From Rebecca billardiae RCC1528 (taxonomy: Eukaryota; Protista; Haptophyta), in assembly GCA_965240325.2 (NCBI GenBank), contig OZ251222.1, positions 3,720,001-3,784,000 of the forward strand: 64,000 bases of DNA, read 5' to 3'. Shown here piece after piece: positions 21,709 through 41,700 of this stretch. Below the pieces are notes generated by a model, which ran no database searches, was not told the DNA's origin, and saw only the letters and a program-made list of their open reading frames with translations. The position numbers and the translations under genes are program-made. Numbering within the stretch: the stretch's first letter is position 1; each line of letters starts with the position of its first letter.

Positions 21709-21791
21709 GTGTGTGGGAGTATACGGTGCCGCCGCCCCAGCTCTCTCCTCCGAGCCTACGACTCGTCATCCCCGATTCTCAGTCGAGCCAC
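21709..21791 (+). repeat. PLV left TIR (83 bp), followed by TCGAGCCACA subterminal repeats
   Basis: GTGTGTGGGAGTATACGGTGCC...CAGTCGAGCCAC is the exact reverse complement of 37870-37952. Confidence 0.97.
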
Positions 21792-21932
21792 ATCGAGCCA
21801 CATCGAGCCACATCGAGCCACGACGACCCACGAGCCACCATCCCACCACCGCCCGCCACCAACCGCCGCCGCCACGCCGCCGCCGCGTTTATTTCGGCGC
21901 AATATAAAATCTTACGCACGTGTATAATACTG

Positions 21933-22583
21933 ATGCCTTGGCGTGTGACTTGCGATGCACGCACCGGAGCGCCCGGCTTCGCCGAGAGCGAGGAATACGA
22001 ATCACGCTGGTATGTGGACCTGACGGACGCCATTCGTCACTTGCTCAATTTCAGCCCCTCGGAGCGGTTTCATTGCGTCCGCCACGCCACGGTACACTTC
22101 GAGTACTCGGGCGGTCGGGCATGCGAATTTCGGGATGGCCTGATTTTCTACGGCAATAGCCTCAGGGACTTAGGCGTGAGCGAGCGCACCTTTGATGACG
22201 CGTTCGAACAGGCGCTCGGCATCAAGCCGGTCACGCTGGAGCGGGTGAAGAACGTGTATGTCCCCATCGACACGAATGTTTCCTCCGGCCGCCATCGCCT
22301 CACGCAAGAGACCATCAAGCAAAAATCAAGGCGCTTACTTCCTCCGGAGGAAGAGTTGGAGGCGCACAGAGAGGAGAACATCGAGTGCTCCGAATGCCGC
22401 CGCGAGGTGCCATTCGAGCTCTTCGCCTTCCGCCGCCGCCGAGGCGGCAGCGTGACACGCACGATGAACTGCTACGAGTGCCACCTCGAGCAGGTGCGCA
22501 TCCGCCGGGCGCGCTTCGTGAGCAAGGGCGCATCCTCGGTGGAGCGCGACGCTCAAATAAAATCGGCGATTCGCGCCACCTAG
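21933..22583 (+). CDS. PLV hypothetical protein (216 aa) with C-terminal CxxC..CxxC zinc finger
   Basis: ATG at 21933 after an AAAATC motif; CSEC...CYEC. Same frame as the upstream host SPPP ORF. Confidence 0.7.
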   Translation: MPWRVTCDARTGAPGFAESEEYESRWYVDLTDAIRHLLNFSPSERFHCVRHATVHFEYSGGRACEFRDGLIFYGNSLRDLGVSERTFDDAFEQALGIKPVTLERVKNVYVPIDTNVSSGRHRLTQETIKQKSRRLLPPEEELEAHREENIECSECRREVPFELFAFRRRRGGSVTRTMNCYECHLEQVRIRRARFVSKGASSVERDAQIKSAIRAT

Positions 22584-22661: not shown

Positions 22662-25600
22662 ATGATGAACGTTGATGCCCTCATCCGAAATGCCCGCGCG
22701 CGCCTCAACGAGCGCACTCCTCGCATCGAAATTCCAATCACGAGTCGCCTGGGCGCTACCGCAGCGGCTCGTCGCGCTACTAGTCGTACTAGTGGAAACA
22801 CGAACCCCATCGCCAGAGCGTTCCAGTCTCCGCCGGGCAGCCCACCCGCCGGCTCGACGCCAGCCACCGGCCTTCGCCCCATCAGCCGCTCGCTCAGCCA
22901 ATACACGCGGGAGCAGCTCGTGCGCATCCGCCAATTCCAAGACGCATTCGAGGGCTTCGGCATGAGCGCGCCGCAAGTCCTCGCCGGCATGCTTTATCAA
23001 GATCCGTGGAGCGAACAGCGGCGCAAGATCCCCTCCACTAGCAGACAGCTCGACGCCCTCGCCGAGCGCGTCGCCAGCAAGATCTCCGGCCCCGCGCCCC
23101 GCCGCCGCCGCCGCGCGCCCGCCCGCGCGCCCGACCGCGAGCGCGCCGCGAGCCTCCTCCAGCGCTTCAATCGCTCCCACCGCTGGACTGACACCCAGCG
23201 CACGCAACTGGAAGTCGACCGGAACCTCGCCATGCTCTCCACAAGCATGCAGGATCGGTATTTTGAGTTCATCGACCGCAAGCGCTTCATCATGCCGCTC
23301 AAATGGATTCTACGCGAGAATCTTGGGTTGCTCCTGGAGCAGCAGCTGAATTACACGCCGAGCCAGCATCACCTCGGGGCGATTCTCCAGACGATTAATG
23401 CGACTATTGACGCTCGCTTGCAGGAGATACCGTACAGCCGGCTTTCGATGCACATTCGACTCGAATCGATATTCGCGCACGCCAAGGTGACGATTAGCAA
23501 ATCCAACAAGAACGGAAAGTCCGTCGAGACGTCCGATTTCACCTGGGAGGCGGACCCCTTCGCGGTGACCATGCACGAGGTCGCTCAGCTCAAGACCCGC
23601 GAGGAGATTATGCTCCACGCGCGCGCCTTCAAAAACGAGAATGACAAGTATAATCCGACCGCCCTCAACAAGGGCTTCTACGAATTCGGTGTGGTCACCG
23701 CGGGCGCGAAGGAGCTCGACAATTCGACGACGCGCCTGGTCATCGACAAAGGCAATCCCGAGGATGTGCAGCAGGCCAAGACCAAAATCGCGGAGATGCT
23801 TGCGCTCGTCACCTCCACGAGCAATCCGCAGTACAGTGCGCGGCGATTTGTGGGCCTCCTCAGTTTTGATGTGGATACCTACCCGATCAATGCCGTCCGC
23901 CAGCAGGGCTCGTCCTACGTCAAGCTCCCGCAGAAGTTCGGTGGTGGGAGCAAGGGGCTGATCAACCCGGAGAACAAGACCGACAACAAGTGTTTTCTGT
24001 GGGCCTCGCTCATGCACTTTGCCAGCGCAGATGGAGCCAAGAAGCTGGAGCGCACCAGCACGCTCAAGCGCTACGAGTCGATGATCGTCTGGCCGGAGGA
24101 GGTCAAGTTCCCGTTCGACTGCACCGACATCCCGAGCCTCGAGGAGGCCAACCCCACCCTCACCTGGAACGTCTTCTCACTCGAGCAGATCAAGCGCACC
24201 GCAGAGGATCATCATGAGCACCCCGAAGATACCGACGAGTCCAAGTACCCCATCGTGCCGATTCACACGACCACGCCGGAGAAATACCGCGAGCGCACGC
24301 TCATCAACATCCTCGCGTACGAGAGCCACTACGTCTTCATCAAGGACCTCGACAAGCTCCTCAGCGAGCGTGCGCACAACTGCGCGCACTGCCCCATCTG
24401 CACGCGCCGCTTCAGGACCAAGGCAAACCGCGATCAGCACACAGCGCAGTGCAACGCCAATTGGCGTCACCTCTTCCAGCCGTGGACGCTCGACGAGATT
24501 AAGAGCCAGGCGAGGACACCTCAGGAGCTCAAACGCACCGAGACGGACATCACCTACTCGCAAGATACTTCCGTCGTGTGGAAGCCGGTGGTAGCGGTGG
24601 CTGACTTCGAGGCGGTCAACACCACGCAGGTCAACGGGCAGACGCACCAGAAGGCGCAATCGGTAAGCCTCAAGTTTGATTTTCAGGACGGCATGGAGGT
24701 TCCTAACATCGATTGCAGCTTTATGGGTCCGGATGCGGGCGTGCGGTTTTTGCATGCGCTGCTCGATGCTACCCCAAAGATCCGCGATGCATGCTCGCGC
24801 TATAAGGGCAACTTTTCAAAGGTCACCGCGGCCGACCGCGAGCACTTTGAGGCGAGCGAGACGTGCCACTTTTGCGGTGAGGCTGCCTTCTCCTCAAACG
24901 CGGAGATTGCTCGCGCCGAGGCGGAGTATGAGCTCAAAGCGAAACTCGCGGTGGATGCGGACGAAAAGGATTCGCTGAAGGGCGCGCTCGAGGAGGTTCG
25001 GGCCCAGCGCAAGGTCCTCGACCACTGTCACTGCACGGGCCTCTACCGCGGCGCGGCGCACTCGCGGTGCAACCTCAAGCACGGCACGCCGAGCCTCATC
25101 AGCAGCATTCCGGTCTACTTCCACAACATGTCCTATGATAGCCAGCTCATCATGCAGGCGCTCTCCGACGTGAGCGTTCAGGCGCGCATCAAGGAGCACA
25201 AAGTCCGAATGAACGCCATGGTGATCAACTCCGAGCGTTTCAAGACGCTCGAGATTGGGCCCTTCCGCATCCTCGACTCGATGACTTTTCTGGGCGGAAG
25301 CTTGGCGGAATCTCTGAAGAATCTGCCTTCAGAGGCCAAGCACTCGCTCCGCCAGGCGGCCAACGAGCACGCAGAGCGCTTCGGCAAGGACCCAAGTGCA
25401 GTGTTCGAGGCCTTCAAGCACAAGCAGGTCTTCCCGTACGAGTTCGACTGGCATCAACACCTCGACGAATTCATCAGCGCAGACCCTCAGCTCTTCAGCT
25501 CCAAGCTCTGTGAAGGCTACGGCAAGACCGACGAGGAGCTGGAGGAGCGCCTGGAGGCCGAGCAAGAGGAGCTTGAGAAGAGCCTGCCCGAGCGCATGAG

Positions 25601-27287
25601 CCGCCTGCAGGAGGCGACCGGCATCGTCACGTGGCGCGACCTCCACGATCTGTACCTCAGCATTGATGTCTGCGGGCTCCAAGATTGCATGCGCGCATTC
25701 CGCAAGACCTCGATGAACACGTACGGCCTCGACCCGGCCTATTGCATCTCCAACTCGCAGTTCGCGTGGAAGGCCATGCTCAAGCTTACGGGCGTGAGGC
25801 TCGAGAGCATCCCGACGAGCGGACTGTACGAGCACGCCGAGTCCGGGCTCCGCGGAGGCATGTCGATGGCGCGAAACCGCATCGCACACGCCAATCACCC
25901 AGATCTCCCCGAATTTGATCCCACCAAAGAATTTTCGGCCATTCACGATTTTGATGCCAACGCGCTTTATGCCTCGGTGATGTCGTGGAAGCTACCGACG
26001 GGCGGGTATAAGGACGTCGATCCGGAGCGCTTCGATGCCAACGATCCGCGCTACGGTGGGCTCCCGACGCGACCGAATCAGCCGTGTGAAGAATGGCAGG
26101 GCGACGTGGGGGCGCTCGTGACAGTGGACATCGACTACCCAGACCGGCTGCACGACCTTCACAGCGACTACCCGCTGCTCCCTGAGGTGATGGAAGTACC
26201 CGACGAGATGCTCTCCCCTGCGCAGCAGGGCAAGCGCGCCGTCAAGACCACCAAGCTGATTGCGCACCTTGGCTCCCGCAAAAATTACACGCTCAACGTC
26301 ACGATGCTCAAGTTTGCGCTGGCGCAGGGGCTCGTGCTCACCAAGGTGCACCGAGTCGTCGAGTTCGAGCAAAGTCCGTGGCTGCGCCCGTGGGTGGACC
26401 TCAACACGCGGCTGCGCAAGCAGGGCAAGAACGCCTTCGAGGAGGGGTATTTCAAGCTCATGGTGAACGCATGCTTCGGCAAGACCATGGAGCGAATCTA
26501 CCACCACACGCAGGCTCGATTCATTGATAACCGTGCTGCATTCACTCGGGCCATGACGAGTCACCGGGCGCTCACGTACAAGCCTATCGCACCCGAGTTT
26601 GCGCTCGTGACGATGAGCAAGCGCGAGTACGTGCGTGACAAGCCCATCTTCGTGGGTGCCTCGATCCTCGACTTTTCGAAATTGTGGATGTATACGTTTT
26701 TGTATAATGTGGTCTACCCCACCTTCGGTCCGAAGAATGCCCGCCTGCTCGGGACGGATACCGACTCGCTGATTATGAATTTCCGAGCGCCCTCGCACGA
26801 GGCCTATTTGGAGAAAATGCTCAGCATCCGCGATGAATGGCTGGACACGAGCAAATTTCCGGAGGGGCACCCGCTCTTCACGGACGACAACCGCAAGACG
26901 CCGGGGTTTTTCAAGGACGAGCTCGGCGATAATCTGGCGGTGGCAGTGGCCTTTGTGCGGGCGAAGACGTACTCAATCAAGACGCGCAAGAGCCTCGAGG
27001 GCGAGCTTGAGGACGTCCACCGAGCCAAGGGGGCTCCCTCCCGCTGCGTGCAAAATAGCCTCACGCACGACGACTACGAGACGACGATTTTAGATAATTC
27101 GAGCGTCAGCGCACAGTATCACGATTTGCAATACAAAAATCACAACATAGTTTTCAGTCGCCGCGTGAAGAAGGTGCTCGACTGGGTCGACGATAAGGGC
27201 TATCATCTCTCGGCCGAGCGCACCATCGCCCTCAATCACTGGCGCATCAAGGCCGGTGGTCACGCTCTCGCGGCGGTAATGGACTAG
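22662..27287 (+). CDS. polB: Protein-primed family B DNA polymerase with N-terminal extension and endonuclease VII-like insertion
   Basis: Exo VADFE, YFHNMSYD, YLSID; Pol DFDANALYASVM, KLMVNACFGK, TDTDS, KTY; DNKCFLWA...HY; CHFC...DHCHCTGLYRGAAHSRCN. Confidence 0.96.
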   Translation: MMNVDALIRNARARLNERTPRIEIPITSRLGATAAARRATSRTSGNTNPIARAFQSPPGSPPAGSTPATGLRPISRSLSQYTREQLVRIRQFQDAFEGFGMSAPQVLAGMLYQDPWSEQRRKIPSTSRQLDALAERVASKISGPAPRRRRRAPARAPDRERAASLLQRFNRSHRWTDTQRTQLEVDRNLAMLSTSMQDRYFEFIDRKRFIMPLKWILRENLGLLLEQQLNYTPSQHHLGAILQTINATIDARLQEIPYSRLSMHIRLESIFAHAKVTISKSNKNGKSVETSDFTWEADPFAVTMHEVAQLKTREEIMLHARAFKNENDKYNPTALNKGFYEFGVVTAGAKELDNSTTRLVIDKGNPEDVQQAKTKIAEMLALVTSTSNPQYSARRFVGLLSFDVDTYPINAVRQQGSSYVKLPQKFGGGSKGLINPENKTDNKCFLWASLMHFASADGAKKLERTSTLKRYESMIVWPEEVKFPFDCTDIPSLEEANPTLTWNVFSLEQIKRTAEDHHEHPEDTDESKYPIVPIHTTTPEKYRERTLINILAYESHYVFIKDLDKLLSERAHNCAHCPICTRRFRTKANRDQHTAQCNANWRHLFQPWTLDEIKSQARTPQELKRTETDITYSQDTSVVWKPVVAVADFEAVNTTQVNGQTHQKAQSVSLKFDFQDGMEVPNIDCSFMGPDAGVRFLHALLDATPKIRDACSRYKGNFSKVTAADREHFEASETCHFCGEAAFSSNAEIARAEAEYELKAKLAVDADEKDSLKGALEEVRAQRKVLDHCHCTGLYRGAAHSRCNLKHGTPSLISSIPVYFHNMSYDSQLIMQALSDVSVQARIKEHKVRMNAMVINSERFKTLEIGPFRILDSMTFLGGSLAESLKNLPSEAKHSLRQAANEHAERFGKDPSAVFEAFKHKQVFPYEFDWHQHLDEFISADPQLFSSKLCEGYGKTDEELEERLEAEQEELEKSLPERMSRLQEATGIVTWRDLHDLYLSIDVCGLQDCMRAFRKTSMNTYGLDPAYCISNSQFAWKAMLKLTGVRLESIPTSGLYEHAESGLRGGMSMARNRIAHANHPDLPEFDPTKEFSAIHDFDANALYASVMSWKLPTGGYKDVDPERFDANDPRYGGLPTRPNQPCEEWQGDVGALVTVDIDYPDRLHDLHSDYPLLPEVMEVPDEMLSPAQQGKRAVKTTKLIAHLGSRKNYTLNVTMLKFALAQGLVLTKVHRVVEFEQSPWLRPWVDLNTRLRKQGKNAFEEGYFKLMVNACFGKTMERIYHHTQARFIDNRAAFTRAMTSHRALTYKPIAPEFALVTMSKREYVRDKPIFVGASILDFSKLWMYTFLYNVVYPTFGPKNARLLGTDTDSLIMNFRAPSHEAYLEKMLSIRDEWLDTSKFPEGHPLFTDDNRKTPGFFKDELGDNLAVAVAFVRAKTYSIKTRKSLEGELEDVHRAKGAPSRCVQNSLTHDDYETTILDNSSVSAQYHDLQYKNHNIVFSRRVKKVLDWVDDKGYHLSAERTIALNHWRIKAGGHALAAVMD

Positions 27288-27953: not shown

Positions 27954-28604
27954 CTATTTTGAGGGGTTCTTTTTTCGAGCGGACGGTCGCGCGGACGGCC
28001 GCAGTAGCCGGATACCCTCGCTGCGGATACCGGTGATAGGGCCCGTGAATCGCGCGGTGATGACCTGCGCACGGCGATTGGCGTTCGCCCGCGTGGTCAC
28101 GTTCGCGCCGGCGGGGATGACGTTGTGCTGCTCGACGTCTGGCTCGCGCCCGCCTTGGCGCACGATTTTCCCTGCCTTATCAAACACGTAATACTTGCCG
28201 TCGACGGGCCGGCGCGCGCGCGCCAGTAGCCGAGCGACGTTCTCCTCGAGCATTGCCGGGTTGCTGATTTGCCTCCACTCTTTATCGAGCGGCGGCTTGA
28301 CGAAGCCAAAGCCGGGGTTTGTGAGCGCGAGCAGGCGCTTCTCGGCGGGGAAGACCAAATTCGAAGACACAACCAAAAACCCGACTAGCCTGAACGAATT
28401 ACCGGGTTTGACGTAGGGCATCATATGACGATAGCCTTTGAAGGTTCGACTCACAATATTGGCGGTGAGGCCCATTTTGAACAAACGGTTAGAAGTGTCC
28501 CACCCGGGGGCGATCACATATAGGCCCGCCGCCGGCTTCCCTTCCGGGGTGCGCTTCAGCAAATTCGCGTTTTGCATGGCCTTTTCAAACTGCGATGATT
28601 TCAT
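27954..28604 (-). CDS. GIY-YIG superfamily (T5orf172/MUG113-like) nuclease with basic C-terminal tail
   Basis: GLYVI...LFKMGLTANIVSR...AEKRLL...EW fits the Y-[VI]...K-x-G-x-[TS]...R...E pattern. Confidence 0.7.
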   Translation of the reverse strand: MKSSQFEKAMQNANLLKRTPEGKPAAGLYVIAPGWDTSNRLFKMGLTANIVSRTFKGYRHMMPYVKPGNSFRLVGFLVVSSNLVFPAEKRLLALTNPGFGFVKPPLDKEWRQISNPAMLEENVARLLARARRPVDGKYYVFDKAGKIVRQGGREPDVEQHNVIPAGANVTTRANANRRAQVITARFTGPITGIRSEGIRLLRPSARPSARKKNPSK

Positions 28605-28749: not shown

Positions 28750-30918
28750 ATGTCGTCGATTTTTGGCGACTCGCCAAGCATCTCTGCTGCTATCGATGGC
28801 TCCGTCCAGGCGCTCGGGAGCGGACCGGCAGTCTCTTGGACGGGCAACATCGAGACCTTCCCGCTGAATCCGTCTGGATTATACGCCACTTTTTCTCCAG
28901 GGCTGCCCACGAGCGGCGTACTGCGGGTGCGCATCTCGCATCCAACCCATTATTTTGACGTGACATCGCTCGCGCTCACCAGCGCAGATATGACCATCGC
29001 GTGGACAGCGGCAAGCTGGGAAAGTAACAGCGTGGTATATGACGAAGAATTCAAGCCGCATTTCCAGATTTGGTCCGACGAGACGTATCTGACCTCATTT
29101 GATTACACCGGCAGTTTGTACACGGAATCGATCAGTTTTGAAGGCACACTGATTCAGGCGGCGGCGCGCAACACCCCAGTCCTCCACATGCCTCTGGCGG
29201 GCGACTTGATTGATACCGTCCGCGGGCAGGCTATGGTGCCCTCTGGTACCACTTCGTTTACAGACAAATCCATCGTGATGAACTCGGCGAGCGGTGCGTT
29301 CACCATCACCAACCCTGGTCATGACTGGCGCGACTTTACGCTATGCGCGTTCATGCGCGGCCCCTCCGGCGCCGGCGTGATGGATCTGCGCGTGGGGCAG
29401 ACTGACACCAGTGTTATCGTCTCGCTATCACCCACCGCGAATGTCGAGATCACCACGCTCAAAGATAGCTCTTCACTGATAACAAACGTAGATGAAGATA
29501 CACGCCAAACGTGGTTCCACGTGGCAGTGCAGCAGAACGCCACCCACGTGGATGTCTACATCGATCAAGTGCTTGCGCACAGCCGCGATCTCGACCCAGC
29601 GCTCGACCCCGACCCCGATCGGGTCTCTTTGCGCTATCCCGTAGTATTTAATGCCGATCTGGCAAGCGAATTGGCCCATGTGACAATCTACCCATACGCA
29701 CTCGATACCACCGATCGACTGGCGCACGCCGAAAGCTGGTCTGGGTACGTCCCACCGCCGGCGCTCGTGCTGCACCTGCCTCTGAGCGCCGACCACACCG
29801 CGGTTGTGGGCACAACTCCAGCCGTATTGCCGCCGGGATCCGGATCCTTTGCAGGCGGGTATTTGACCATGGATACCGTTTATTCGTTCGAGACACCGTC
29901 CGACACGTTCTCCGCCACGAATGGTTTCACGATGTGCGCTTGGATGCGCTCTGCGGCAGGGTGGCAGCCGGGCGATTACGTTCGCTTCCGCGTGTTTGAG
30001 GGTAATTTCACGACCAATTCCAAGGCAGAGCTGGACCTCGAATCCGGTCATGTGTGGAGTCGTCACGAGCAAGTCACAGGACTCTCCGCAGGCCAATGGT
30101 ATCACTTGGCGTGGCGCTGGCGGCCGAACGATAATCTGCAAGAACTGCTCGTGGACGGCGTCGTCTCTGCCAGCAGCATCCAGCCCGGCCAATTCACGAC
30201 GTATCAATCGTGGCGCGTCCAAAACAATGCGGCAGACGCTGCGTTGATGCACTTGCAAGTGTGGGACGGCTACGTCGACGACATTGCGCAGGTCATGATT
30301 GACTACCCACTACCAGAGGCAATAAGTCCATTTGCCAGCTGGCCGATGACGGCGAATTTGACCGACGATGTGGGTAGCTATGCCTTTACGGTGTCGACTG
30401 GGACCGCAACGCACACGAATGGCTATGCGGACCTCAGTAGCGGTCTGGTGATGACTGCACCGGTACCGACTCAGACGATGACGGCTTTCGGGTTCTCTGG
30501 ATGGGTCTACGTGGATGACATCCAGGGCTCATTAAAATTCGAATGGCGTAATACAGGCTCGAAGGTCGTGCATTTCTACATCTATCGCAACGGCGTGGGT
30601 AATACCGCATTCGGCTTCGATATTACAGGGCAGTCTGGCAACTTGTATGATCGTGTGGATGTGCTGCCGCTGAATACCTGGTACCACATTGCCTGGTCTT
30701 ATACAGTCGGAGGCAACCTGGAGGCCTGGCTGAACAAGGTGTCCCTCGGCGCGGAGGCCATGAGCGCCACCGCAGTGGGCGATATCAACGAAATTTATGT
30801 CAGCACGCCTCCAAGCGGCGGTCCTTTCAAGTGCGCGGCCGTTCGCTTTTATACCGACGGTGCGCTCACCCAGGCCGAAGTAGATAGCGACTATGACCTC
30901 TTCACGCCACCGCCATAG
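28750..30918 (+). CDS. Protein with three LamG/concanavalin A-like domains; putative fibre or receptor-binding protein
   Basis: Three repeats of (H/W)(M/L)PL..D...FT.(C/S).W...W(Y/F)H(V/L/I)A...(Y/W).(D/N). Confidence 0.75.
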   Translation: MSSIFGDSPSISAAIDGSVQALGSGPAVSWTGNIETFPLNPSGLYATFSPGLPTSGVLRVRISHPTHYFDVTSLALTSADMTIAWTAASWESNSVVYDEEFKPHFQIWSDETYLTSFDYTGSLYTESISFEGTLIQAAARNTPVLHMPLAGDLIDTVRGQAMVPSGTTSFTDKSIVMNSASGAFTITNPGHDWRDFTLCAFMRGPSGAGVMDLRVGQTDTSVIVSLSPTANVEITTLKDSSSLITNVDEDTRQTWFHVAVQQNATHVDVYIDQVLAHSRDLDPALDPDPDRVSLRYPVVFNADLASELAHVTIYPYALDTTDRLAHAESWSGYVPPPALVLHLPLSADHTAVVGTTPAVLPPGSGSFAGGYLTMDTVYSFETPSDTFSATNGFTMCAWMRSAAGWQPGDYVRFRVFEGNFTTNSKAELDLESGHVWSRHEQVTGLSAGQWYHLAWRWRPNDNLQELLVDGVVSASSIQPGQFTTYQSWRVQNNAADAALMHLQVWDGYVDDIAQVMIDYPLPEAISPFASWPMTANLTDDVGSYAFTVSTGTATHTNGYADLSSGLVMTAPVPTQTMTAFGFSGWVYVDDIQGSLKFEWRNTGSKVVHFYIYRNGVGNTAFGFDITGQSGNLYDRVDVLPLNTWYHIAWSYTVGGNLEAWLNKVSLGAEAMSATAVGDINEIYVSTPPSGGPFKCAAVRFYTDGALTQAEVDSDYDLFTPPP

Positions 30919-30952
30919 ACAGCCAAAAATCCGTGGTACCGGTACCATAACA

Positions 30953-31621
30953 ATGCGAGCCGTACCTACGGTATCAACCGCCGAAGGCGAAGCGCGCGTC
31001 GCGACCGGCGCCAAAGCGGCGTGGGATGCCGGCCACACCCTGGAGAACGACCACCGTAATCTGTTGCGCGCATCGTACGACGATTTGCCTCGTGCGCAGC
31101 ACCGCTTGCACTCGCTCGGGTACGATATGGATGCCGATTTGAGCACGGACGAGGCCAAAGTCGCCGTCCACCGGGCGTCTGGCAGGCCACTGGTGCTGCA
31201 TCGCGGATCGACCACCTCCGCTGATTGGCTGGTGAGCGATGCGCTCATCGCCGCCGGCCGAGCTGATGCGCACGACCCCCGCCACGCGCGCGCGCGCAAG
31301 ATCACCGAAATTACCCGGCGCAAATATGGACAACCGGTGTCGGCCATCGGGCACTCGCTCGGCGGCAGGCTGGCGGCACAATCCGGTGCAAAAGGACGCA
31401 TTCTCGGCGTCGACCCAGCGGTCGGCATCGGGGATGCATTTAAGAGGCGTGGCGACAATCACACGGTGATCAGATCGCCTGATGATGTGGTCAGCGCGCT
31501 CGGCGTGACGCAGCGCGGTGGGCAGGTCAAACACAAGCGCGGCTATGCTAAAAAAGGCAGCGCCGCGGACTTTTTATTGGGAGGGCTACCGATCAACCCG
31601 ATCGAGGCCCACCGTTTTTAA
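30953..31621 (+). CDS. Lipase (class 3-like alpha/beta hydrolase)
   Basis: HRGS...DW, GHSLGG nucleophile elbow, D-VVS, C-terminal His; common in PLVs and virophages. Confidence 0.85.
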   Translation: MRAVPTVSTAEGEARVATGAKAAWDAGHTLENDHRNLLRASYDDLPRAQHRLHSLGYDMDADLSTDEAKVAVHRASGRPLVLHRGSTTSADWLVSDALIAAGRADAHDPRHARARKITEITRRKYGQPVSAIGHSLGGRLAAQSGAKGRILGVDPAVGIGDAFKRRGDNHTVIRSPDDVVSALGVTQRGGQVKHKRGYAKKGSAADFLLGGLPINPIEAHRF

Positions 31622-31906: not shown

Positions 31907-31929
31907 ACTAGTATTCGTAGATCGGATTT

Positions 31930-33183
31930 TTACTCGGAGAACGACACGATGCCGTCAGACACCTCCAGCAGCATGTCCGCCTGGCAGAAGAAATCAACGA
32001 TAATAGAGACGCCAGCTTTCGTGTCACACACGAATTGCACGGCCTCATCGCGGAGCACGCGACCGTCACTCAGTATATCACTCAGACCGAACGCCGACAG
32101 TGAGAGCCCCATCACAAAGCCCTCCTCATCATATACTGCAGACGAGAGCGTGCTGGGCGCGTCAGCCATGTCGACGCTCTGAAGGGCCTTCATCAGCTCC
32201 ATACGCCCCTCGGCGGCACCGTTCGCAAGTGAGATGCGCTCCTGCGGTACGTTGTGCGCCCCGATCTTCAGGTAAAAATAGCTGGCGTCGGCACGCGTGC
32301 GCAAGTTGCCGTGCACCGCCGCCGACTCGACGCTCGAATCCGCGCGAATAATCGCGAAGATAGCGTTTGCCGAAGCCATCTTCCAGGGTAGCGTGAAATT
32401 GATTGAGCCGCTTTGGACTGTGGTCTGGGCATGATGCCAATTCGACGTGGGGATAATGATGCGCGGAATCGAGCGGACGAGCGCCTGCTCAACCGAGTCG
32501 GCGAGCTGCACGAGCGACATTTGATACTTGACATTATCGAGCTTGAAGCTGCCGGTTGACAGCCCATTACCAGTCACGCCCCATTTGGGCAGCGGTGCGA
32601 CCTTGACCTCGACGCGCAGGCCATCGCGGATCACGCCCAGTGGGATGGACTTCTGCGCGAGCGAGCCGAGGCAATATGGGAGCGGAAGGCAGACCGTCTT
32701 GCGCTCGCCGGCTTCGATTCGCGCACCATCGCGGCTGTAGTAGGCATCGACCGCATCCAAGATGACATTGCCACTAATAGGGAGATAATCCGACGAGCCC
32801 ATGATCGTGTTGGTTGTCATGCGGCTGCTAGTGGAGGCCTGCGTATCCATGAGCATCTGGCACAGCTCGCCGAACTGATCATTCGAGGCCACGTGGGTTG
32901 ATCCGAAATACGTGTCGATCGACTGAATGCACGAGTGCGCCGTACCAGTGAGCGTCAGGGAAGTGGTGCTGTTGTTGAAAACGTCAAACTGCAAGTACGA
33001 CTCTGACGTGTTCCAATGAGTGCCCGGCGAGCCCGTCGGGAGCTGGAAGATCATCTTCGTGCCTGGGCCGAATTCGTTGCTGGGGCCTGGGACGACAGAC
33101 GAGCGAATCGACTGAGCGGGCACTGCGAGATCCTTGGGCTTGGCATAGTTATAGCTGGCCGGGACAGTCGGCGTCGAATCCAT
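31930..33183 (-). CDS. Major capsid protein (double jelly-roll, PLV type)
   Basis: 417 aa, beta-rich. N-terminal P..FGPG..MIFQLP....SYLQFDV and C-terminal FVMGLSL...DMLLEV patterns are typical of PLV MCPs. Adjacent to mCP and ATPase. Confidence 0.85.
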   Translation of the reverse strand: MDSTPTVPASYNYAKPKDLAVPAQSIRSSVVPGPSNEFGPGTKMIFQLPTGSPGTHWNTSESYLQFDVFNNSTTSLTLTGTAHSCIQSIDTYFGSTHVASNDQFGELCQMLMDTQASTSSRMTTNTIMGSSDYLPISGNVILDAVDAYYSRDGARIEAGERKTVCLPLPYCLGSLAQKSIPLGVIRDGLRVEVKVAPLPKWGVTGNGLSTGSFKLDNVKYQMSLVQLADSVEQALVRSIPRIIIPTSNWHHAQTTVQSGSINFTLPWKMASANAIFAIIRADSSVESAAVHGNLRTRADASYFYLKIGAHNVPQERISLANGAAEGRMELMKALQSVDMADAPSTLSSAVYDEEGFVMGLSLSAFGLSDILSDGRVLRDEAVQFVCDTKAGVSIIVDFFCQADMLLEVSDGIVSFSE

Positions 33184-33226
33184 TTATTAAGGTGTGAGAG
33201 GATGCGACATTTTATTTTGCCACGTC

Positions 33227-33988
33227 TTAGACGACGTCGAGTCGGAGTCGGAGCGTCCACTGAGCTCCGTTGAGATTAAGTGGCTCCATCGTATTTGAAT
33301 CGAGTAGCTGGAATTCCAATGTGCTAATACTGCGGCGGCCGACTTCGCGTACGGTGTCCGTCTGATTGAGCCATGTTTGGACTTGCCCGAAGCCTACGTT
33401 GAAGAGCACCTCGCCTAGAACATTCGTCGTGGAGCCGCCGCCAGTGGAATCGCGCGTGCGCAGCTCGAGGCTCTCGCACGCCACCAGCGCACCGCGGCGT
33501 AGCATGTCGGCGACGCCCGGCGGCGAGGCGGAGCCGCCAGCAGGCACCGTTAGGTTCGATCCGAGCAACCCGATCACGCGAGCGATGGGCGATGAGGCCC
33601 ACACGGTGTCATCCGTACCCAAGCTGTTCGCGAAGACGAATTTGCCGAGCTGCTCGTCAAAAGTAACCGTCAAATGACTCGCACCGCCCGCCGTCAGCTT
33701 TGAAGTAAGCTCGGTGGCCAGCTGCGAAGCGGTGTAATTTTTGATATCGGGATAGACGTGCACATCACCCCAGTTACCGCCCACATACAAGTCGTTATTC
33801 GTGGCGTCGATTGCATACGATGTATTTGGCAAGCAAACGCTGATTAAATTGCAGAATATGTTCTCGCTGCTGTCTGCCACTATGGGCTCCGACAGATCAA
33901 ATACGACGTGGTCGGTGCGGTTAGAGCCGCTCGGGAAACGGTCAGCCTGCGCAGTGCTCAAATACAGGTCACTCAGCGCAAACGTCAT
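33227..33988 (-). CDS. Minor capsid (penton) protein
   Basis: LYLST..., LPNTSYAID..NN.L, NY...QLA..L, C-terminal LEFQLLD....LNLNG..W.L.L motif. Confidence 0.82.
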   Translation of the reverse strand: MTFALSDLYLSTAQADRFPSGSNRTDHVVFDLSEPIVADSSENIFCNLISVCLPNTSYAIDATNNDLYVGGNWGDVHVYPDIKNYTASQLATELTSKLTAGGASHLTVTFDEQLGKFVFANSLGTDDTVWASSPIARVIGLLGSNLTVPAGGSASPPGVADMLRRGALVACESLELRTRDSTGGGSTTNVLGEVLFNVGFGQVQTWLNQTDTVREVGRRSISTLEFQLLDSNTMEPLNLNGAQWTLRLRLDVV

Positions 33989-34134
33989 TGTGGTCGTCAC
34001 GCGGATTTTTAAGCGTCGCTTTTAGAGCTGGCGGTGGGTGGTTTTGAGCGAGCTCTTCGAAGACTTCGTCGGGGAGGCACGCGGGCAGCTTCGAGCGCCA
34101 GTAGATTTCGGCGTAGTCTCTGTAACAAATATCC

Positions 34135-34683
34135 ATGGTGCTCTTAACTATGACCAAGAAAAAAGTAGTGGTCATTGAGGCCGGTAATCACCTCGATGCT
34201 CGGCCTGGCGCCGGCGATAGCATCGGTGATAGCAGGGGTTCTCCTGGGGAACTGTCTGTGGGAAGCGATGCTGCCTCCGCGAGTGAGCCCGCCTCACTCG
34301 TGGTGGAACCCCCTCCAATTGTGCGAGCAGAGCCTATATATGCAACTCCTGTCACCGTCATAAAGAAGCGAGTGCTGAGCGACAAGGCCCGCAAGGCGCT
34401 CGATCGAGGGCGACTCCAGCGTATGCGCGATGAATACGGCCGCCAAATCGCTAACTATACAAAGCTAGCCAAAGAGCTCGATGAGCGCCTCGCAACCCTC
34501 GATCCTGCAGGGCCAACCCCAGAGCCACGAGCGCTCAAGCGCACCGATATGGTCATCGTAGACGAGCCCCCGGCTCGACCGACGGAGAGCCAGCCGCCCG
34601 CGCCGACGCCCGCGCCGACGCCCGCGCCGGTTCGCCCGCCGTTGCGCTATGCGCCTGCATCGCGTGCCTTCAAATTCGCCTAA
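34135..34683 (+). CDS. PLV hypothetical protein upstream of the ATPase
   Basis: KKRVLSDKARKALDRGR basic helix, coiled coil, Pro-rich tail; the start may be 34150. Confidence 0.65.
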   Translation: MVLLTMTKKKVVVIEAGNHLDARPGAGDSIGDSRGSPGELSVGSDAASASEPASLVVEPPPIVRAEPIYATPVTVIKKRVLSDKARKALDRGRLQRMRDEYGRQIANYTKLAKELDERLATLDPAGPTPEPRALKRTDMVIVDEPPARPTESQPPAPTPAPTPAPVRPPLRYAPASRAFKFA

Positions 34684-34703
34684 AAATACCAAGGCCCCTA
34701 CTA

Positions 34704-35414
34704 ATGGTGACCATCGAGGAGACGCCCCCTGAAAAGGTGATCGAACTGGTGATGCCTGCCATGCTCGTCGACGGGAAGCTATCGGACAGCATACCAGAGC
34801 CACTGCCAAATCAAGCCAGTTTTTGGGGATTCTTTGGGCCGCCCCGCTCGGGAAAGAGCTCGGCGGTAATCGCGCTGCTGACGGGCCATTATCGCCAAGT
34901 GTTTCACAACGTGATATATATCGTGCCGGCGTCGAGCTTTGCGAGCGTGCGGGACAATCCGCTTGCGCAAGTGAAACATGTGTACCACGAATTCGACGCC
35001 GAAACGCTCGATGATGTGATGGATATCGTCAAAGCGTCATCGAAGAAGGGTCATCACACCCTCGTTTTAGTCGACGATTTCATGACCGCTCTCAAAGACG
35101 CGCCGCTGCGCAGGCAATTCGAAAAACTGGTAGCCAACCGCCGCCACCTGCGCACGAGTTTGTGGGTCATCTCACAAAACTATATTGCGCTGCCGTTGAG
35201 CACGCGGAAGCTTCTGAGTCACACGCTGTTTTTTCGACCTAATAATTTGCGTGAAACGGAGTCGTTCCGCAGCGAGCTCTTCCCTATGAGCCGGCACGAT
35301 TTCCAGGTGATTTTTAATCACGTGTTTGCGAGCGGCAACAAGCACGATTTTATGTTTGTCGACGTGGATGCGGGTGAGATCCACAAGAAATGGACTAGAC
35401 TTCGAATCGTCTAG
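34704..35414 (+). CDS. A32-like (FtsK/HerA) genome-packaging ATPase
   Basis: Walker A GPPRSGKS, Walker B LVLVDD, RRH....ISQ motif. Confidence 0.92.
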   Translation: MVTIEETPPEKVIELVMPAMLVDGKLSDSIPEPLPNQASFWGFFGPPRSGKSSAVIALLTGHYRQVFHNVIYIVPASSFASVRDNPLAQVKHVYHEFDAETLDDVMDIVKASSKKGHHTLVLVDDFMTALKDAPLRRQFEKLVANRRHLRTSLWVISQNYIALPLSTRKLLSHTLFFRPNNLRETESFRSELFPMSRHDFQVIFNHVFASGNKHDFMFVDVDAGEIHKKWTRLRIV

Positions 35415-35454
35415 ACCGACGACGAATAAATCTAGGCATCACTCACAGATCACG

Positions 35455-36255
35455 ATGGGCGAGGCAGTACACCACGAGCGTCTCGAAATCAATGAAAAAA
35501 CGACTCATTTTTCGCTAAACGGCGAGCCCTACGATGGACCCAAGCACCGTAAGTGGCCAAAATACGAGTGGTGGACTGGCGTGATCCCAACGAACGCTAG
35601 CGAGAAGCTCGTCTACCACAATCGCGCGCTGCTAATGGAGGGCCAGGATGATGACCCGTCAGCGCCTTTCAAGATCATGTCGACGCTCGAGTCACACGGC
35701 GAGCATAGCGGTGAAATCGTCAATTTTGAGACGATGGCGCGCGACCCGCAGACGGACGAGCGCATCCGTCTCTCTAAAATGAATTTCCCCCCACGCAATA
35801 TGTTTGCAGGCAAACGCGGCGGTTTTTCGCACGTGGTCGAGCAGCGCCTGCCCGAAAGCAAACCAGTGAGGCCACAGACGCCTCCAGAGGAGGCGCCAGT
35901 GCCTGCAACCCCCATGAAGCCCGCGCCAAGTCGATCACCTGCACCCATGTCAATGACCAGGGTCATGCCCGAGCCGGTAACGGGTCAGCCTATGGATGCT
36001 ACACCCCTTCTAGTTGACGGTCTGCCTATGTTTGTTGGTGAACTTCGAACCAGTGTCAGACGTACAGCTCAAAATCGCATTGATGTATTCTTTAATCGTT
36101 TCTTGGTGAGATCTTATGAGGACGGCTGGAGCAATGATCATTTGGAAAATAAGCTCGCGTCGCATCTGAAGATAAAATTACCGCTTGTGCGCATACTCGT
36201 CAATGAAAAGGTTGCCCGGGGTGGTCCTCGACGGCAGCCAGCGCTACTACCTTAG
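35455..36255 (+). CDS. PLV hypothetical protein (266 aa)
   Basis: ATG at 35455 after the ATPase stop; two globular parts joined by a Pro-rich linker; no recognisable motif. Confidence 0.6.
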   Translation: MGEAVHHERLEINEKTTHFSLNGEPYDGPKHRKWPKYEWWTGVIPTNASEKLVYHNRALLMEGQDDDPSAPFKIMSTLESHGEHSGEIVNFETMARDPQTDERIRLSKMNFPPRNMFAGKRGGFSHVVEQRLPESKPVRPQTPPEEAPVPATPMKPAPSRSPAPMSMTRVMPEPVTGQPMDATPLLVDGLPMFVGELRTSVRRTAQNRIDVFFNRFLVRSYEDGWSNDHLENKLASHLKIKLPLVRILVNEKVARGGPRRQPALLP

Positions 36256-36575
36256 CCGACAAAGTGGTACACGATTACCTTTCCCTTAATGGCCATGCAG
36301 CGCACCGCATCGGCTATCTCGAACACAGGCGTATCGTGCATTTTGATGTAGGCCTCAGCATCGAGCAGCTCGATGTCGATGAGATCAAAAGTGCGAGTGC
36401 GCTGGAGGCGCTTGCTCAGGTAGCCGTCGCGAAGCGTGATGGTCGTCTTGATCTTCTTGTTGCGCAGATCGCTCATGTACTTACCAGATGGCTTGCGCAC
36501 CTCCGTGCGCCGGCCCTCGTCGAGCATTTCGAAGAAATCACGGTCGAGCGGGAGCGAGACCGTTGGAGTCACCAT
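36252..36575 (-). CDS. ASCH/PUA-like domain protein
   Basis: LPL...FFEML..GRRTEVR...ITLRDGY resembles the ASCH GxKxxExR...GY signature. Confidence 0.55.
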   Translation of the reverse strand: MVTPTVSLPLDRDFFEMLDEGRRTEVRKPSGKYMSDLRNKKIKTTITLRDGYLSKRLQRTRTFDLIDIELLDAEAYIKMHDTPVFEIADAVRCMAIKGKVIVYHFVG

Positions 36576-36604
36576 CGTGCGGGCACTAGTCCGGATTTTG
36601 ATTT

Positions 36605-37552
36605 TTAAGAAGCCTTGAAGCGCTTCGGGAGATCCGGGTAGCGAGCGCCTGGAGCGCCCGTGTCGAGCTCCTCGGAAGTGTAGGTCTCGTTCACGTCAAC
36701 GACGATCATCCGCTTGCGCTGGTTGATCACCTCGACGTCCGGCGTAAAGTTCGCCGCGACGATCACCCACGGCTTGCGGATGCGCTTGAACGGGATCTTC
36801 GACGTGCCCGGCACCTTCCCGCCCGCCAGGTTCTCGAGCAGGCCCCAGAACCAGCTCGGCACGCCCACCAAAGTCGTGATCTTCGTCAGGTCGAAGAAAA
36901 CGTGATCGATGGGGCCGTTGCGGAGGCGTGCGACGATGATCGCTCGCGTGCTGCCTGGGATGTCGTAGTACTCGATGAGGGGGAGCAGGCCCGTGGACAT
37001 AGGCTGCTCAGATATGAAGTCGCACATCATCGACTTGCCGATCTGACCAGTCTTGTCGCTCGCGAACCAAACCGTGTTCGCCGTCGCCTCCTGCGGGAAG
37101 GGCTTGGCAAAAGCCTCCATCCACTCTTTCTGCATCAAGTTGGGCTCGAAGAGAAGCGGTGGTGGGAGTGAGCTCATCGAGGGCGAGGCGAACGTAGACG
37201 TCTGCAGCGCGTCGATTCGCCCTAGCAGCTTCGCCTCGCGCTGCGCAAAGTACTCCGCGCACGGCGTGTCGAATCCGTACTTGATCTTGGCAAAGGCAGT
37301 GCCAAACTTGAGGGAGGGCATGCGCACCTCGCCGTTGATCTCCTGCACGCGGCACGAGCGGCGGTAGTCGAGTGTGAGGACGAGCGTGATGCCCTCGTGC
37401 GTGCTCGCCGACGTCAGCCGGCCGTGCTTCCCGCCCTCGAGCGTGTCGAGCGTCCTCGTCTTCACGTGCTCGTGCAGGACGTCGTGCTCATCGCAGTCCG
37501 CAAAAACGAACTCCCAGTGCGATCGCGCTAGCGGAGCGTGCTTGGATGGCAT
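36605..37552 (-). CDS. CRESS-virus Rep-like protein: SF3 helicase with a degenerate HUH-like N-terminus
   Basis: VWFASDKTGQIGKS (Walker A), VFFD (Walker B), LENLAGG, PWVIVAANFTPD (motif C), as in nanovirus/alphasatellite-type Rep helicases. Confidence 0.75.
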   Translation of the reverse strand: MPSKHAPLARSHWEFVFADCDEHDVLHEHVKTRTLDTLEGGKHGRLTSASTHEGITLVLTLDYRRSCRVQEINGEVRMPSLKFGTAFAKIKYGFDTPCAEYFAQREAKLLGRIDALQTSTFASPSMSSLPPPLLFEPNLMQKEWMEAFAKPFPQEATANTVWFASDKTGQIGKSMMCDFISEQPMSTGLLPLIEYYDIPGSTRAIIVARLRNGPIDHVFFDLTKITTLVGVPSWFWGLLENLAGGKVPGTSKIPFKRIRKPWVIVAANFTPDVEVINQRKRMIVVDVNETYTSEELDTGAPGARYPDLPKRFKAS

Positions 37553-37869
37553 ATTGCGCTTCGGTCGCTTTTCACCTAAGCCGCTTGTCTTTAACTACGA
37601 GCCGCACGGGCTTCGTGGGGCTTCGTGGTGGTGCTGTAGTAGTGGGATCGCTTCTCTTTAACTACATATGAGTCCGGATGCTCAAAAATGAGTTCAGTAC
37701 GGTGGGGCTTCGGGGGCTTCGTGGGGCTTCGTGGGACGAGTCGGACGAGTCGTAGACTCGTGGTGGGTCGGAGACTCGTCGTAGACTCGTGGGATGGCGA
37801 TTGGGGGAGGCTCTGCGGAGGCTCGATGCGGCTCGATGTGGCTCGACGTGGCGGCGGGTGGCGGGCGTC

Positions 37870-37952
37870 GTGGCTCGACTGAGAATCGGGGATGACGAGT
37901 CGTAGGCTCGGAGGAGAGAGCTGGGGCGGCGGCACCGTATACTCCCACACAC
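37870..37952 (-). repeat. PLV right TIR (83 bp)
   Basis: Exact reverse complement of 21709-21791; ends ...ATACTCCCACACAC. Confidence 0.97.
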
Positions 37953-38707
37953 GCCCACCGCCCTCGCCGCCGCCCAGCCCGCCGCCCTCGCCGCCGCCGA
38001 GCCCGCCGCCTTTTCCACCCCCTTCGCCGCCTCCTAGCCCGCCACCGTCGCCGCCGCCAAGCCCGCCGCCACCGAGTCCGCCGCCGTCTCCGCCGCCGTC
38101 CCCGCCGCCTAGCCCACCGCCTTCGCCGCCACCGTCACCGCCGCCCAGCCCGCCGCCAAGCCCGCCGCCGTCACCGCCACCGAGCCCACCACCGTCACCA
38201 CCGCCGAGCCCTCCACCGAGCCCGCCTCCGCCGTCGCCGCCACCGTCGCCACCACCGTCGCCCCCGCCGAGCCCGCCACCATCACCGCCGCCGACGCCAC
38301 CGCCATCACCACCGCCGAGCCCACCGCCGTCGCCGCCACCGTCGCCGCCGCCATCGCCGCCGCCGTCGCCACCTCCGAGCCCGCCGCCCCCGAGCCCGCC
38401 GCCCTCACCGCCGCCCTCACCGCCGCCGAGCCCGCCGCCCTCGCCGCCGCCGTCCCCGCCACCCAGCCCGCCGCCGTCCCCGCCGCCGAGCCCGCCCCCA
38501 CCAAGCCCGCCGCCATCACCGCCGCCAAGCCCGCCGCCCAGCCCACCACCGTCACCGCCGCCGTCCCCGCCTCCCAGCCCGCCACCGAGCCCGCCGCCGA
38601 GCCCGCCACCGAGCCCACCACCGTCGCCGCCGCCGAGCCCGCCACCGAGCCCGCCGCCGCCGTCGCCGCCGCCGTCGCCGCCGCCGTCACCGCCGCCGTC
38701 ACCGCCG

Positions 38708-38740
<33 letters not shown>

Positions 38741-41700
38741 CCGCCGAGCCCGCCGCCATCGCCGCCGCCATCGCCGCCACCATCACCGCCGCCGTCACCA
38801 CCACCCAGCCCGCCGCCGCCAAGCCCACCACCATCGCCGCCGCCCTCACCGCCGCCGTCACCCCCGCCCTCGCCACCGCCGAGTCCGCCGCCGTCACCGC
38901 CCCCGAGCCCGCCGCCATTGCCGCCGCCGTCACCGCCACCCAGTCCGCCGCCCTCGCCGCCGCCGAGCCCGCCGCCACCCAGTCCGCCGCCATCGCCGCC
39001 CCCGAGCCCGCCGCCGAGACCACCGCCGAGCCCGCCACCCTCACCGCCACCCAGCCCACCGCCAAGCCCTCCGCCAAGCCCGCCACCGAGCCCGCCACCG
39101 TCGCCACCACCGAGCCCGCCTCCGAGTCCGCCTCCGCCGTCGCCGCCACCGTCGCCACCGCCGTCACCTCCGCCGAGCCCGCCTCCGTCGCCGCCACCGT
39201 CACCACCGCCCAGCCCGCCACCCAGCCCGCCGCCGTCGCCGCCGCCGTCGCCACCACCGTCACCTCCGCCGAGCCCGCCTCCGTCGCCGCCACCGTCACC
39301 ACCGCCCAGCCCGCCACCCAGCCCGCCGCCGTCGCCGCCGCCGTCGCCACCACCGTCGCCGCCACCATCGCCACCGCCCAGCCCACCGCCGCCAAGCCCC
39401 CCACCCAGCCCGCCGCCCTCTCCACCGCCCTCTCCGCCGCCATCGCCTCCCCCGTCACCACCGCCCAGCCCGCCGCCGTCGCCGCCACCGTCGCCGCCGC
39501 CTTCGCCGCCACCGAGCCCGCCGCCGTCGCCGCCGCCTAGCCCGCCCCCGCCGAGCCCGCCGCCGTCACCGCCACCGTCTCCGCCGCCGAGCCCACCGCC
39601 GAGCCCGCCGCCGTCACCGCCGCCGAGCCCGCCGCCAAGCCCGCCGCCATCGCCACCACCGAGCCCGCCACCGTCGCCGCCACCGAGCCCGCCGCCGAGC
39701 CCACCTCCGCCGTCACCGCCGCCGTCGCCACCGCCATCACCTCCGCCGAGCCCGCCACCATCACCACCGCCTTCACCACCGCCGAGCCCGCCGCCCAGCC
39801 CACCGCCGTCGCCACCACCATCGCCACCACCCTCACCCCCGCCGTCACCACCACCCAGCCCGCCGCCTCCAAGCCCGCCACCATCGCCGCCACCGTCACC
39901 GCCGCCCTCGCCGCCGCCCTCGCCACCGCCGAGCCCACCGCCCTCGCCGCCGCCGTCCCCGCCGCCGAGCCCGCCCCCACCAAGCCCGCCGCCGTCTCCG
40001 CCGCCGTCTCCGCCTCCAAGCCCACCGCCATCACCGCCTCCGTCACCGCCGCCTAGCCCACCACCGAGCCCGCCACCATCGCCGCCGCCGAGTCCACCGC
40101 CATCGCCACCGCCGAGCCCGCCACCGAGCCCGCCGCCCCCATCGCCGCCGCCGTCACCCCCGCCAAGCCCGCCACCGAGCCCACCGCCGTCACCACCGCC
40201 GTCGCCACCACCCTCCCCACCGCCCTCACCACCACCCAGCCCGCCGCCACCGAGCCCGCCACCATCCCCGCCACCGTCACCGCCGCCCTCACCGCCGCCC
40301 TCGCCGCCGCCGAGCCCGCCGCCTTCTCCGCCACCGTCGCCGCCACCGTCGCCGCCACCGTCGCCGCCCCCAAGCCCGCCGCCGTCGCCGCCACCGAGCC
40401 CGCCCCCACCGAGTCCACCGCCATCGCCGCCGCCGTCACCGCCGCCGAGCCCCCCGCCGAGCCCGCCACCGTCACCGCCACCCAGCCCGCCGCCAAGCCC
40501 TCCGCCGAGCCCGCCTCCGAGCCCGCCGCCGTCGCCGCCACCGAGCCCCCCACCGAGCCCACCTCCGCCGTCCCCGCCGCCATCGCCACCGCCGTTGCCT
40601 CCGCCGAGCCCGCCACCGTCGCCGCCGCCTTCACCACCGCCGAGCCCGCCACCCAGTCCGCCGCCGTCGCCACCGCCATCGCCACCACCATCCCCACCGC
40701 CTTCACCACCACCCAGCCCACCGCCACCGAGCCCACCGCCATCACCGCCGCCCTCGCCACCCCCAAGTCCGCCGCCCAGCCCGCCGCCATCCCCGCCGCC
40801 TTCCCCGCCTCCCAACCCGCCGCCATCCCCGCCGCCCAGCCCGCCGCCCAGCCCGCCACCATCACCGCCGCCGAGCCCACCGCCTCCTAGCCCGCCTCCG
40901 TCGCCGCCGCCGAGCCCACCGCCGAGCCCACCTCCTTCACCGCCGCCCTCGCCTCCACCAAGTCCACCGCCCAGCCCGCCGCCATCACCGCCACCGAGCC
41001 CGCCACCATCCCCGCCACCGAGTCCGCCGCCGAGCCCGCCGCCGCCATCGCCGCCGCCATCGCCACCGCCGTCTCCTCCCCCAAGCCCGCCCCCGTCGCC
41101 GCCGCCGTCACCACCACCCAGCCCGCCACCCAGCCCGCCACCTTCGCCGCCGCCGTCGCCACCACCGTCGCCGCCGCCGTCACCACCGCCCAGTCCGCCG
41201 CCGCCAAGCCCGCCACCATCGCCGCCGCCCTCACCGCCGCCCTCACCGCCACCCTCGCCACCGCCGTCACCTCCACCGAGCCCACCACCGAGCCCGCCGC
41301 CGTCGCCGCCGCCGTCACCGCCACCGAGCCCGCCACCGTCGCCGCCGCCCAGCCCACCGCCACCAAGCCCACCGCCGTCTCCGCCACCCAGCCCGCCGCC
41401 GAGCCCGCCGCCTTCACCACCTCCGTCGCCGCCACCAAGCCCTCCGCCGTCGCCGCCGCCCTCACCGCCACCGAGCCCACCACCATCGCCGCCACCGAGC
41501 CCGCCTCCCAGCCCGCCGCCGCCGTCGCCGCCGCCGTCACCACCGCCGTCGCCTCCTCCGAGCCCTCCACCGAGCCCGCCGCCGTCTCCACCTCCGAGCC
41601 CGCCACCCAGCCCGCCACAGTCGCCGCCCCCGTCACCACCACCATCACCGCCGCCGTCACCACCGCCCAGCCCGCCGCCGCCAAGCCCACCTCCATCGCC

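Follow-up and report, generated by a model that had tools for sequence, protein, structure and literature searches.

The last gene of a Polinton-like virus (PLV) element in the genome of the haptophyte Rebecca billardiae RCC1528 is a real, highly divergent derivative of a CRESS-virus Rep, and it shares that element with a protein-primed family B DNA polymerase (pPolB). On balance we consider it probable that its product, a CRESS-type SF3 helicase joined to a likely HUH-derived domain without the His pair, is a non-nicking helicase that would bind the ends of the element on behalf of pPolB. The gene is a further case of gene flow from ssDNA viruses to the small dsDNA viruses of protists, and a mirror image of the bidnavirus origin in that a Rep entered a Polinton-like backbone.

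The element and its Rep-like gene

The window analyzed is a stretch of 64,000 nucleotides of contig OZ251222.1, and all positions are counted from its first letter. Within it, the element occupies 21709-37952, has a GC content of about 58% and is surrounded by proline-repeat host DNA of about 81% GC. Its features are as follows.

21709..21836, plus strand: left terminal inverted repeat (TIR), with four 10-bp-spaced repeats at 21783-21821
21933..22583, plus strand: 216-aa ORF containing a zinc-finger stretch that resembles endonuclease VII/HNH (phrog_1035, E 6.8e-5, residues 129-194 only)
22662..27287, plus strand: pPolB, 1541 aa (PF03175, E 2.9e-6, above cut-off)
27954..28604, minus strand: 216-aa ORF, presumed to resemble T5orf172/GIY-YIG endonucleases (no Pfam or PHROG match)
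28750..30918, plus strand: laminin-G repeat protein, 722 aa (PF13385, E 4e-17)
30893..31621, plus strand: alpha/beta hydrolase, lipase-like (PF12697, E 0.021, weak)
31930..33183, minus strand: probable PLV major capsid protein, 417 aa, presumed from a sequence pattern like that of PLV capsids, its size and the gene order (no Pfam, PHROG, PDB or IMG/VR match)
33227..33988, minus strand: probable minor capsid protein, 253 aa, a presumed label (weak DUF5901 match, E 0.018)
34704..35414, plus strand: A32-like packaging ATPase (PF04665, E 2e-4, below cut-off)
36252..36575, minus strand: 107-aa ORF, downstream of the Rep-like gene and separated from it by 29 bp (phrog_625, of unknown function, matches weakly over the full length, E 0.023)
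36605..37552, minus strand: Rep-like gene, 315 aa, intact ORF from ATG to TAA
36683..37126, minus strand: CRESS-type SF3 helicase, residues 143-290 (profile scores, motifs)
37193..37552, minus strand: probable degenerate HUH domain, residues 1-120 (ESM Atlas, residue inventory; profile signal absent)
37553..37819, unstranded: spacer from the Rep-like start codon to the right TIR, with short direct repeats as candidate binding sites (repeat search)
37820..37952, minus strand: right TIR (inverted-repeat comparison)

Among the marks of a Polinton-like virus, the element has TIRs, a length of 16,244 bp (the range being 15-25 kb), a pPolB replicase and a weakly matching A32 ATPase. The TIRs are identical over 83 nt and 88% alike over about 130 nt. 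In a junction test of 36 pairs, only 21709/37952, with a one-base ambiguity, restored the host repeat unit, six copies of which are found elsewhere in the window. The insertion is therefore exact and without a target-site duplication (TSD), as had been claimed from the sequence at the outset. None of the 94 open frames of at least 75 aa matched an integrase family (Pfam, E<=0.01); Pfam is insensitive on this element: the capsid and Rep-like genes escaped it too, and a divergent recombinase could have done the same.

The host sequence interrupted by the element is a proline-serine repeat reading frame of about 24 kb in all (16944-21708 plus 37953-56900), which comes after an RCC1-like repeat region. 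This frame runs on through the left TIR and the adjoining 216-aa ORF, with no stop until 22583.

The predicted Rep-like frame was recovered at its coordinates, and its start codon faces the right TIR across the spacer. Among 14 genes it agrees best in codon usage with the remainder of the element (0.779, pPolB reaching 0.755), and its GC3 is 0.86; on the strength of that agreement, the gene is a settled part of the element. A nested mobile insertion was considered and rejected, as no repeats flank the gene beyond the short repeats of the spacer and TIR and its codon usage is that of the element. Direct searches with the protein found no Pfam family even at E<=10, no NCBIfam match, no meaningful PHROG or PDB match and no phage record.

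A HMMER search of 1.84 billion representatives returned two matches, P0001 (E 3e-16, query residues 129-293) and P0002 (E 2e-10, query residues 68-276); a third protein, P0003, is a close relative of the P0002 N-terminus. All three are encoded on contigs of 1.2-1.4 kb without gene context, so that the pairing of this family with pPolB rests on one element. Word-based searches for homologues confirmed none of 1783 candidates, a second search of 7996 yielded P0002 and P0003, and a search from P0001 found only P0001 itself among 25. Pattern searches of loci for relatives confirmed 0 of 2, 0 of 52 and 0 of 481 matches, and a capsid pattern search 0 of 10. The three viral and seven metagenome loci found by family-specific motif scans were ordinary CRESS Reps or chance matches, none belonging to the Rep-like family.

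The helicase half

The C-terminal half had been predicted to follow nanovirus/alphasatellite-type Rep helicases rather than D5-like ones. Residues 143-290 scored 35.5 bits on a CRESS helicase profile built from 41 Reps and 0.1 bits on a profile of 60 non-redundant D5-like helicases, the best of 500 shuffled controls reaching 5.2 and 5.6 bits, respectively. The CRESS set was drawn from a Walker A pattern scan of IMG/VR that gave 93 loci, 13 of which were excluded as large contigs or chance matches; 47 proteins with enough flanking sequence were kept (two from another motif scan), most of them with Viral_Rep or Gemini_AL1 domains, and these were reduced to 41. A second scan supplied the D5 set (120 loci, 115 usable, 60 non-redundant), which is mostly phage-like and lacks direct sampling of PLV-specific SF3 families. 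Because the CRESS set had been picked by a motif like that of the query, the comparison was repeated with Walker A masked: the query retained 19.1 bits with the CRESS profile and 0.1 with that of D5, while a D5-like control (L083) fell from 35.6 to 1.3. TIGR01613 of NCBIfam does not match the query and matches a D5 control at E 7e-16. The helicase motifs are present (Walker A G172-K173-S174, Walker B D221, E240 and motif C N268), with R279/R281 at the arginine-finger position. In the ESM Atlas, the nearest clusters to the whole protein are cressdnavirus Reps (0.97), and all neighbors are cressdnaviral.

A maximum-likelihood tree of 67 helicase sequences, computed over 153 columns, unites the query with P0001 and P0002 (100/99) and sets this clade on the CRESS side of a long D5 branch (99/94), with no resolved place among the CRESS Reps. 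The tree alone is not decisive, since the query branch is long (2.39) and the AU test rejects neither a grouping with core D5 helicases (p 0.22) nor one with the virophage Reps described below. Profile scores and Atlas neighbors thus uphold the prediction of a CRESS rather than a D5-like helicase, though not its narrower assignment to the nanovirus/alphasatellite type, and the derivation of this half from a CRESS Rep is supported by its sequence.

The N-terminal half

The overall length and domain order of the protein are those of a full Rep. Submitted alone to the ESM Atlas, residues 1-125 matched Rep_OBD at 0.92, Viral_Rep clusters at 0.91 (16 of 30 matches) and Gemini_AL1 at 0.89-0.90, on a scale where 0.9 is attained by 4-10 of every 100 shuffled proteins and which is not calibrated for protein parts; the match has 168 of 256 features in common, slightly short of the 170 usual for genuine members of a family. 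Against this, hhalign gave the N-terminus a probability of 0.1-0.3%, below shuffled controls, with three HUH profiles made from circo/nano-like Reps, gemini-like Reps (6, then 24 sequences) and virophage N-termini. Two AlphaFold models are of low confidence (pLDDT 35.6 and 37.6), and Foldseek and VIA-align gave no clear structural match with them (best Z 5.9), a result that at pLDDT below 38 counts neither for nor against the fold. The HUH fold that had been suggested for this region thus finds its support in the Atlas and not in the profile comparison, and we regard the N-terminus as likely HUH-derived.

The residues expected of a nuclease are another matter. The first 130 residues of the query contain no His-hydrophobic-His/Gln motif (HUH/HUQ), nor do those of P0002 and P0003; all 30 CRESS controls carry H-x-H/Q together with the motif III Tyr. 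A residue inventory of positions 1-120 left only H52-E53 and Y101 as candidate catalytic residues, and H43 is common to all three N-termini in one alignment. By the motif II test, therefore, the protein is not an active Rep, as far as its residues can tell.

Three words had been proposed as Rep motifs, and all three were located in the protein: HWEFVF at residues 12-17, THEGITL at 51-57 and EYFAQRE at 100-106. The assignments of the first to motif I and of the second to motif II were not confirmed. Strand G54-L61 and its counterparts in P0002 and P0003 correspond by eye to the strand that carries motif II in gemini-like Reps, and THEG would therefore be the end of the preceding strand, where by eye it fits the 'AHE.G' that ends the strand before motif II in those Reps; as motif II itself THEG was rejected, having no second His or Gln. 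The Tyr of EYFAQRE is present as Y101, but across three MAFFT modes its register is ambiguous: it falls either, loosely, in the column of the catalytic Tyr or some two turns ahead of that column, and neither P0001 nor P0002 has a Tyr in the helix matching motif III. Compared by themselves, the query and P0002 N-termini show no significant similarity (215 of 2000 shuffles reach as high a score), so that the non-conservation of Y101 rests on collinearity.

A captured Rep as a probable end-binding helicase, and the alternatives

Since its likely cutting domain has lost its cutting residues, the captured Rep is probably a DNA-unwinding helper. A whole Rep gene may have been captured from a cressdnavirus present in the same host during a co-infection; with protein priming, nicking would have become unnecessary, and the nuclease residues would for that reason have decayed. 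The N-terminal domain would then bind short repeats within or beside the TIRs and load the helicase ring, whose task would be to unwind the duplex ends in front of pPolB. Another agent, such as a tyrosine recombinase from another element or host break repair, would carry out the insertion. One 9-mer, 10-bp-spaced, has six copies, all within the TIRs, against 0.88 expected; an 8-mer has five of its seven window copies in 37608-37731, its window total being not above chance (mean 6.0). A point against this reading is that pPolB elements for the most part do without a gene of this sort. Repeated units in PLV TIRs have also been described for Gezel-14T (10.1101/2022.07.28.501842).

The original prediction had offered two models, an inactivated-HUH helicase paired with pPolB and a divergent active HUH enzyme. 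The first agrees with the absence of HUH/HUQ and with the pPolB of the same element, its HUH fold being likely rather than proven; the second is at odds with the missing His pair. The missing TSD had been cited as a pointer to HUH transposition. HUH transposases (Helitron, IS91, IS200/605, Replitron) have an active HUH-Y1/Y2 site and asymmetric ends, whereas the element has symmetrical TIRs and its Rep-like protein lacks the HUH motif. The pointer is a weak one, and the missing TSD was set aside as evidence for HUH integration, because cryptophyte PLVs with a tyrosine recombinase mostly lack TSDs as well (PMC12220804). No CRESS-type nonamer was found near the Rep-like gene or in the TIRs; the single NANTATTAC match in the element, at 28196, is 8 kb from the gene and inside another ORF.

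Four other accounts of the protein were weighed. An unrelated DNA-binding domain swapped onto a CRESS-derived helicase would suit the shuffling of replicase domains that is reported as common in polisuviruses (10.64898/2026.10.13.758929), along with the missing HUH profile signal and the low-confidence models. We nevertheless think a swap unlikely: the N-terminus alone retrieves HUH Rep clusters in the Atlas, its length and position match a Rep, and MAFFT matches P0002 and P0003 with gemini-like Reps at the strand of motif II and the helix of motif III. Likewise of low probability is the exaptation of the Rep for a non-replicative role, against a helper giant virus or competing ssDNA viruses, in which only DNA binding and ATPase activity would be used. 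In its favor, pPolB may displace strands without a helicase. Such a role has also been proposed for the avipoxvirus apvReps and HHV-6 U94, which have the same pattern of a dead nuclease and a live helicase (PMC10193959). The position of the gene next to the TIR and its pPolB-like codon usage argue the other way, as does the recognized pairing of a stand-alone SF3 helicase with pPolB (10.64898/2026.10.13.758929, Fig. 5 legend).

We consider it improbable that the protein is an active, non-canonical HUH enzyme, with H52/E53 or H43 binding the metal and Y101 as the nucleophile, which either nicks the ends for replication or brings about the TSD-free insertion of the element. The precise insertion and the lack of an integrase match would fit such an enzyme, EYFA resembles motif III and is placed with its Tyr against the catalytic column by MAFFT auto and L-INS-i, and H43 recurs in the three N-termini; but HUH/HUQ is absent in every register, the Tyr is missing from the helix of P0001 and P0002, the nonamer is lacking, the symmetrical TIR ends suit protein priming, PLVs with a tyrosine recombinase lack TSDs too, and a divergent recombinase may have escaped Pfam. 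The bolder proposal that a PLV without a conventional integrase uses a captured Rep with a rebuilt site (H52/E53 or H43, Y101) as integrase or end-nicking enzyme is in our view decidedly improbable; if true, it would join protein-primed replication to HUH strand transfer and yield exact insertions without target duplication. It would surprise us greatly if the helicase were instead a very divergent ordinary PLV (D5-like) SF3 helicase, resembling CRESS Reps by chance or through long-branch effects. The AU test leaves a core-D5 grouping standing, the query branch is long and the CRESS set was picked by a similar Walker A pattern; against these stand the 0.1 bits on the D5 profile (made mostly from phage-like proteins), the absent TIGR01613 match, the CRESS signal that outlasts Walker A masking and the wholly cressdnaviral Atlas neighbors. 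We thus retain the end-binding, non-nicking helicase as the preferred reading.

Comparison with known systems

The pattern is already in print, in virophage Rep-like genes and inactivated avipoxvirus Reps, to which the element adds a variant; given these precedents (10.64898/2026.10.13.758929; PMC10193959), the gene is not a new kind. The protein is like the Reps of Cressdnaviricota in size, domain order, helicase motifs and nearest Atlas clusters, and unlike them in having no HUH/HUQ, a doubtful motif III and no nonamer origin beside the gene, which sits in a 16-kb TIR-bounded element with pPolB and not in a small circular genome.

'Circovirus Rep-like nickases' have been reported in Gulliviroviridae virophages (10.64898/2026.10.13.758929), and genomes that possess a replicase as well as a replication initiator are mentioned in the Fig. 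2 legend of the same work. Like the element, the virophages are small dsDNA viruses with a CRESS-type Rep, and both belong to one subphylum; they differ from it in their virophage capsid and in an HUH domain that is still detectable. Six of the 93 IMG/VR loci are 24-30 kb contigs encoding Rep-like proteins of 366-440 aa (L004:873-2171(-), L037, L061, L067, L073 and L035, with fragments in L082 and L092). The capsid gene of a related contig, L097, matches Sputnik MCP families (E 3e-34), and we infer that the six contigs belong to Gulliviroviridae; no pPolB was seen in 21-kb stretches of the virophage Rep contigs. The N-termini of these Reps are clearly HUH-derived (hhalign 97%). Their motif II reads E-F-H/Q/V-G, the first His being replaced by Glu in all six, and their motif III stretch has no Tyr in five, the sixth having one only at its start; from these motifs, they look catalytically dead. 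As five of the six are closely related, they represent about two lineages and not six events. The loss of motifs calls into question the label of 'nickase', and with it rolling-circle replication in these viruses (10.64898/2026.10.13.758929). One origin for the virophage Reps and the Rep-like family is not rejected by the AU test (p 0.15), whereas the maximum-likelihood tree separates them.

Another Rep-like ORF, from a metagenome contig of 4 kb (L224:377-1123(+)), clusters with the virophage Reps together with four CRESS Reps (98/91). The open frame shows no HUH domain; it is a possible link to the donor lineage.

Avipoxvirus apvReps (apvRep-2) and HHV-6 U94 are captured ssDNA-virus Reps with an inactivated HUH domain and intact Walker motifs (PMC10193959). 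They resemble the present case as ssDNA-virus Reps residing in dsDNA viruses with the nuclease lost and the Walker motifs retained; their hosts differ, being large animal viruses with full replication machinery, whereas in the small element described here no helicase was detected besides the Rep-like gene. Taken with the virophage, avipoxvirus and HHV-6 cases, the gene suggests, by analogy, that captured Reps have more than once given up nicking while being retained as DNA-binding helicases.

Bidnaviruses combine pPolB with a parvoviral helicase whose endonuclease domain has been lost altogether (PMC4061559). The parallel that had been drawn with them holds for the pairing of pPolB with an ssDNA-virus-derived SF3 helicase, in the presence of TIRs; it is a loose one, as their helicase is of parvovirus origin, their endonuclease was lost and not kept, their genome is ssDNA and their capsid is of parvovirus type, and as the direction here is that of a Rep moving into a Polinton-like backbone. 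HUH genes also occur in the 20-45 kb dsDNA viruses of protists, namely mriyaviruses (PMC11253617) and the PLV-sized relatives Zora/VC218 (10.64898/2026.06.19.733378). The mriyavirus HUH protein differs in that its motifs are kept, it is closest to SIRV1-type proteins and it is separate from the helicase, and mriyaviruses lack a DNA polymerase (PMC11253617).

In the accessible parts of PMC11071308, PMC11296320, PMC10120064 and PMC8547959, and in a term search of 10.64898/2026.05.28.728513, nothing on Rep capture was found. The literature, covered mostly at the level of titles, gave no description of an endogenous PLV in which pPolB is accompanied by a CRESS-type Rep whose nuclease is degenerate; the supplements and figures of 10.64898/2026.10.13.758929 may hold genomes with both pPolB and Rep.

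Other observations in the window

An A-rich word of 14-15 nt is common to the upstream regions of pPolB (22612-22626) and of the probable capsid gene (33206-33220 region), and an A-run lies upstream of most element genes. These are possibly a promoter of giant-virus type, which would suit a virophage lifestyle. A separate 3.2-kb element at 9675-12878 has inverted repeats of 225 nt that are 97% alike. It contains an ORF (10436-11857) that we take to be a copia-like reverse transcriptase/RNase H, and the flanking of this copia pol fragment by inverted and not direct repeats is unusual.
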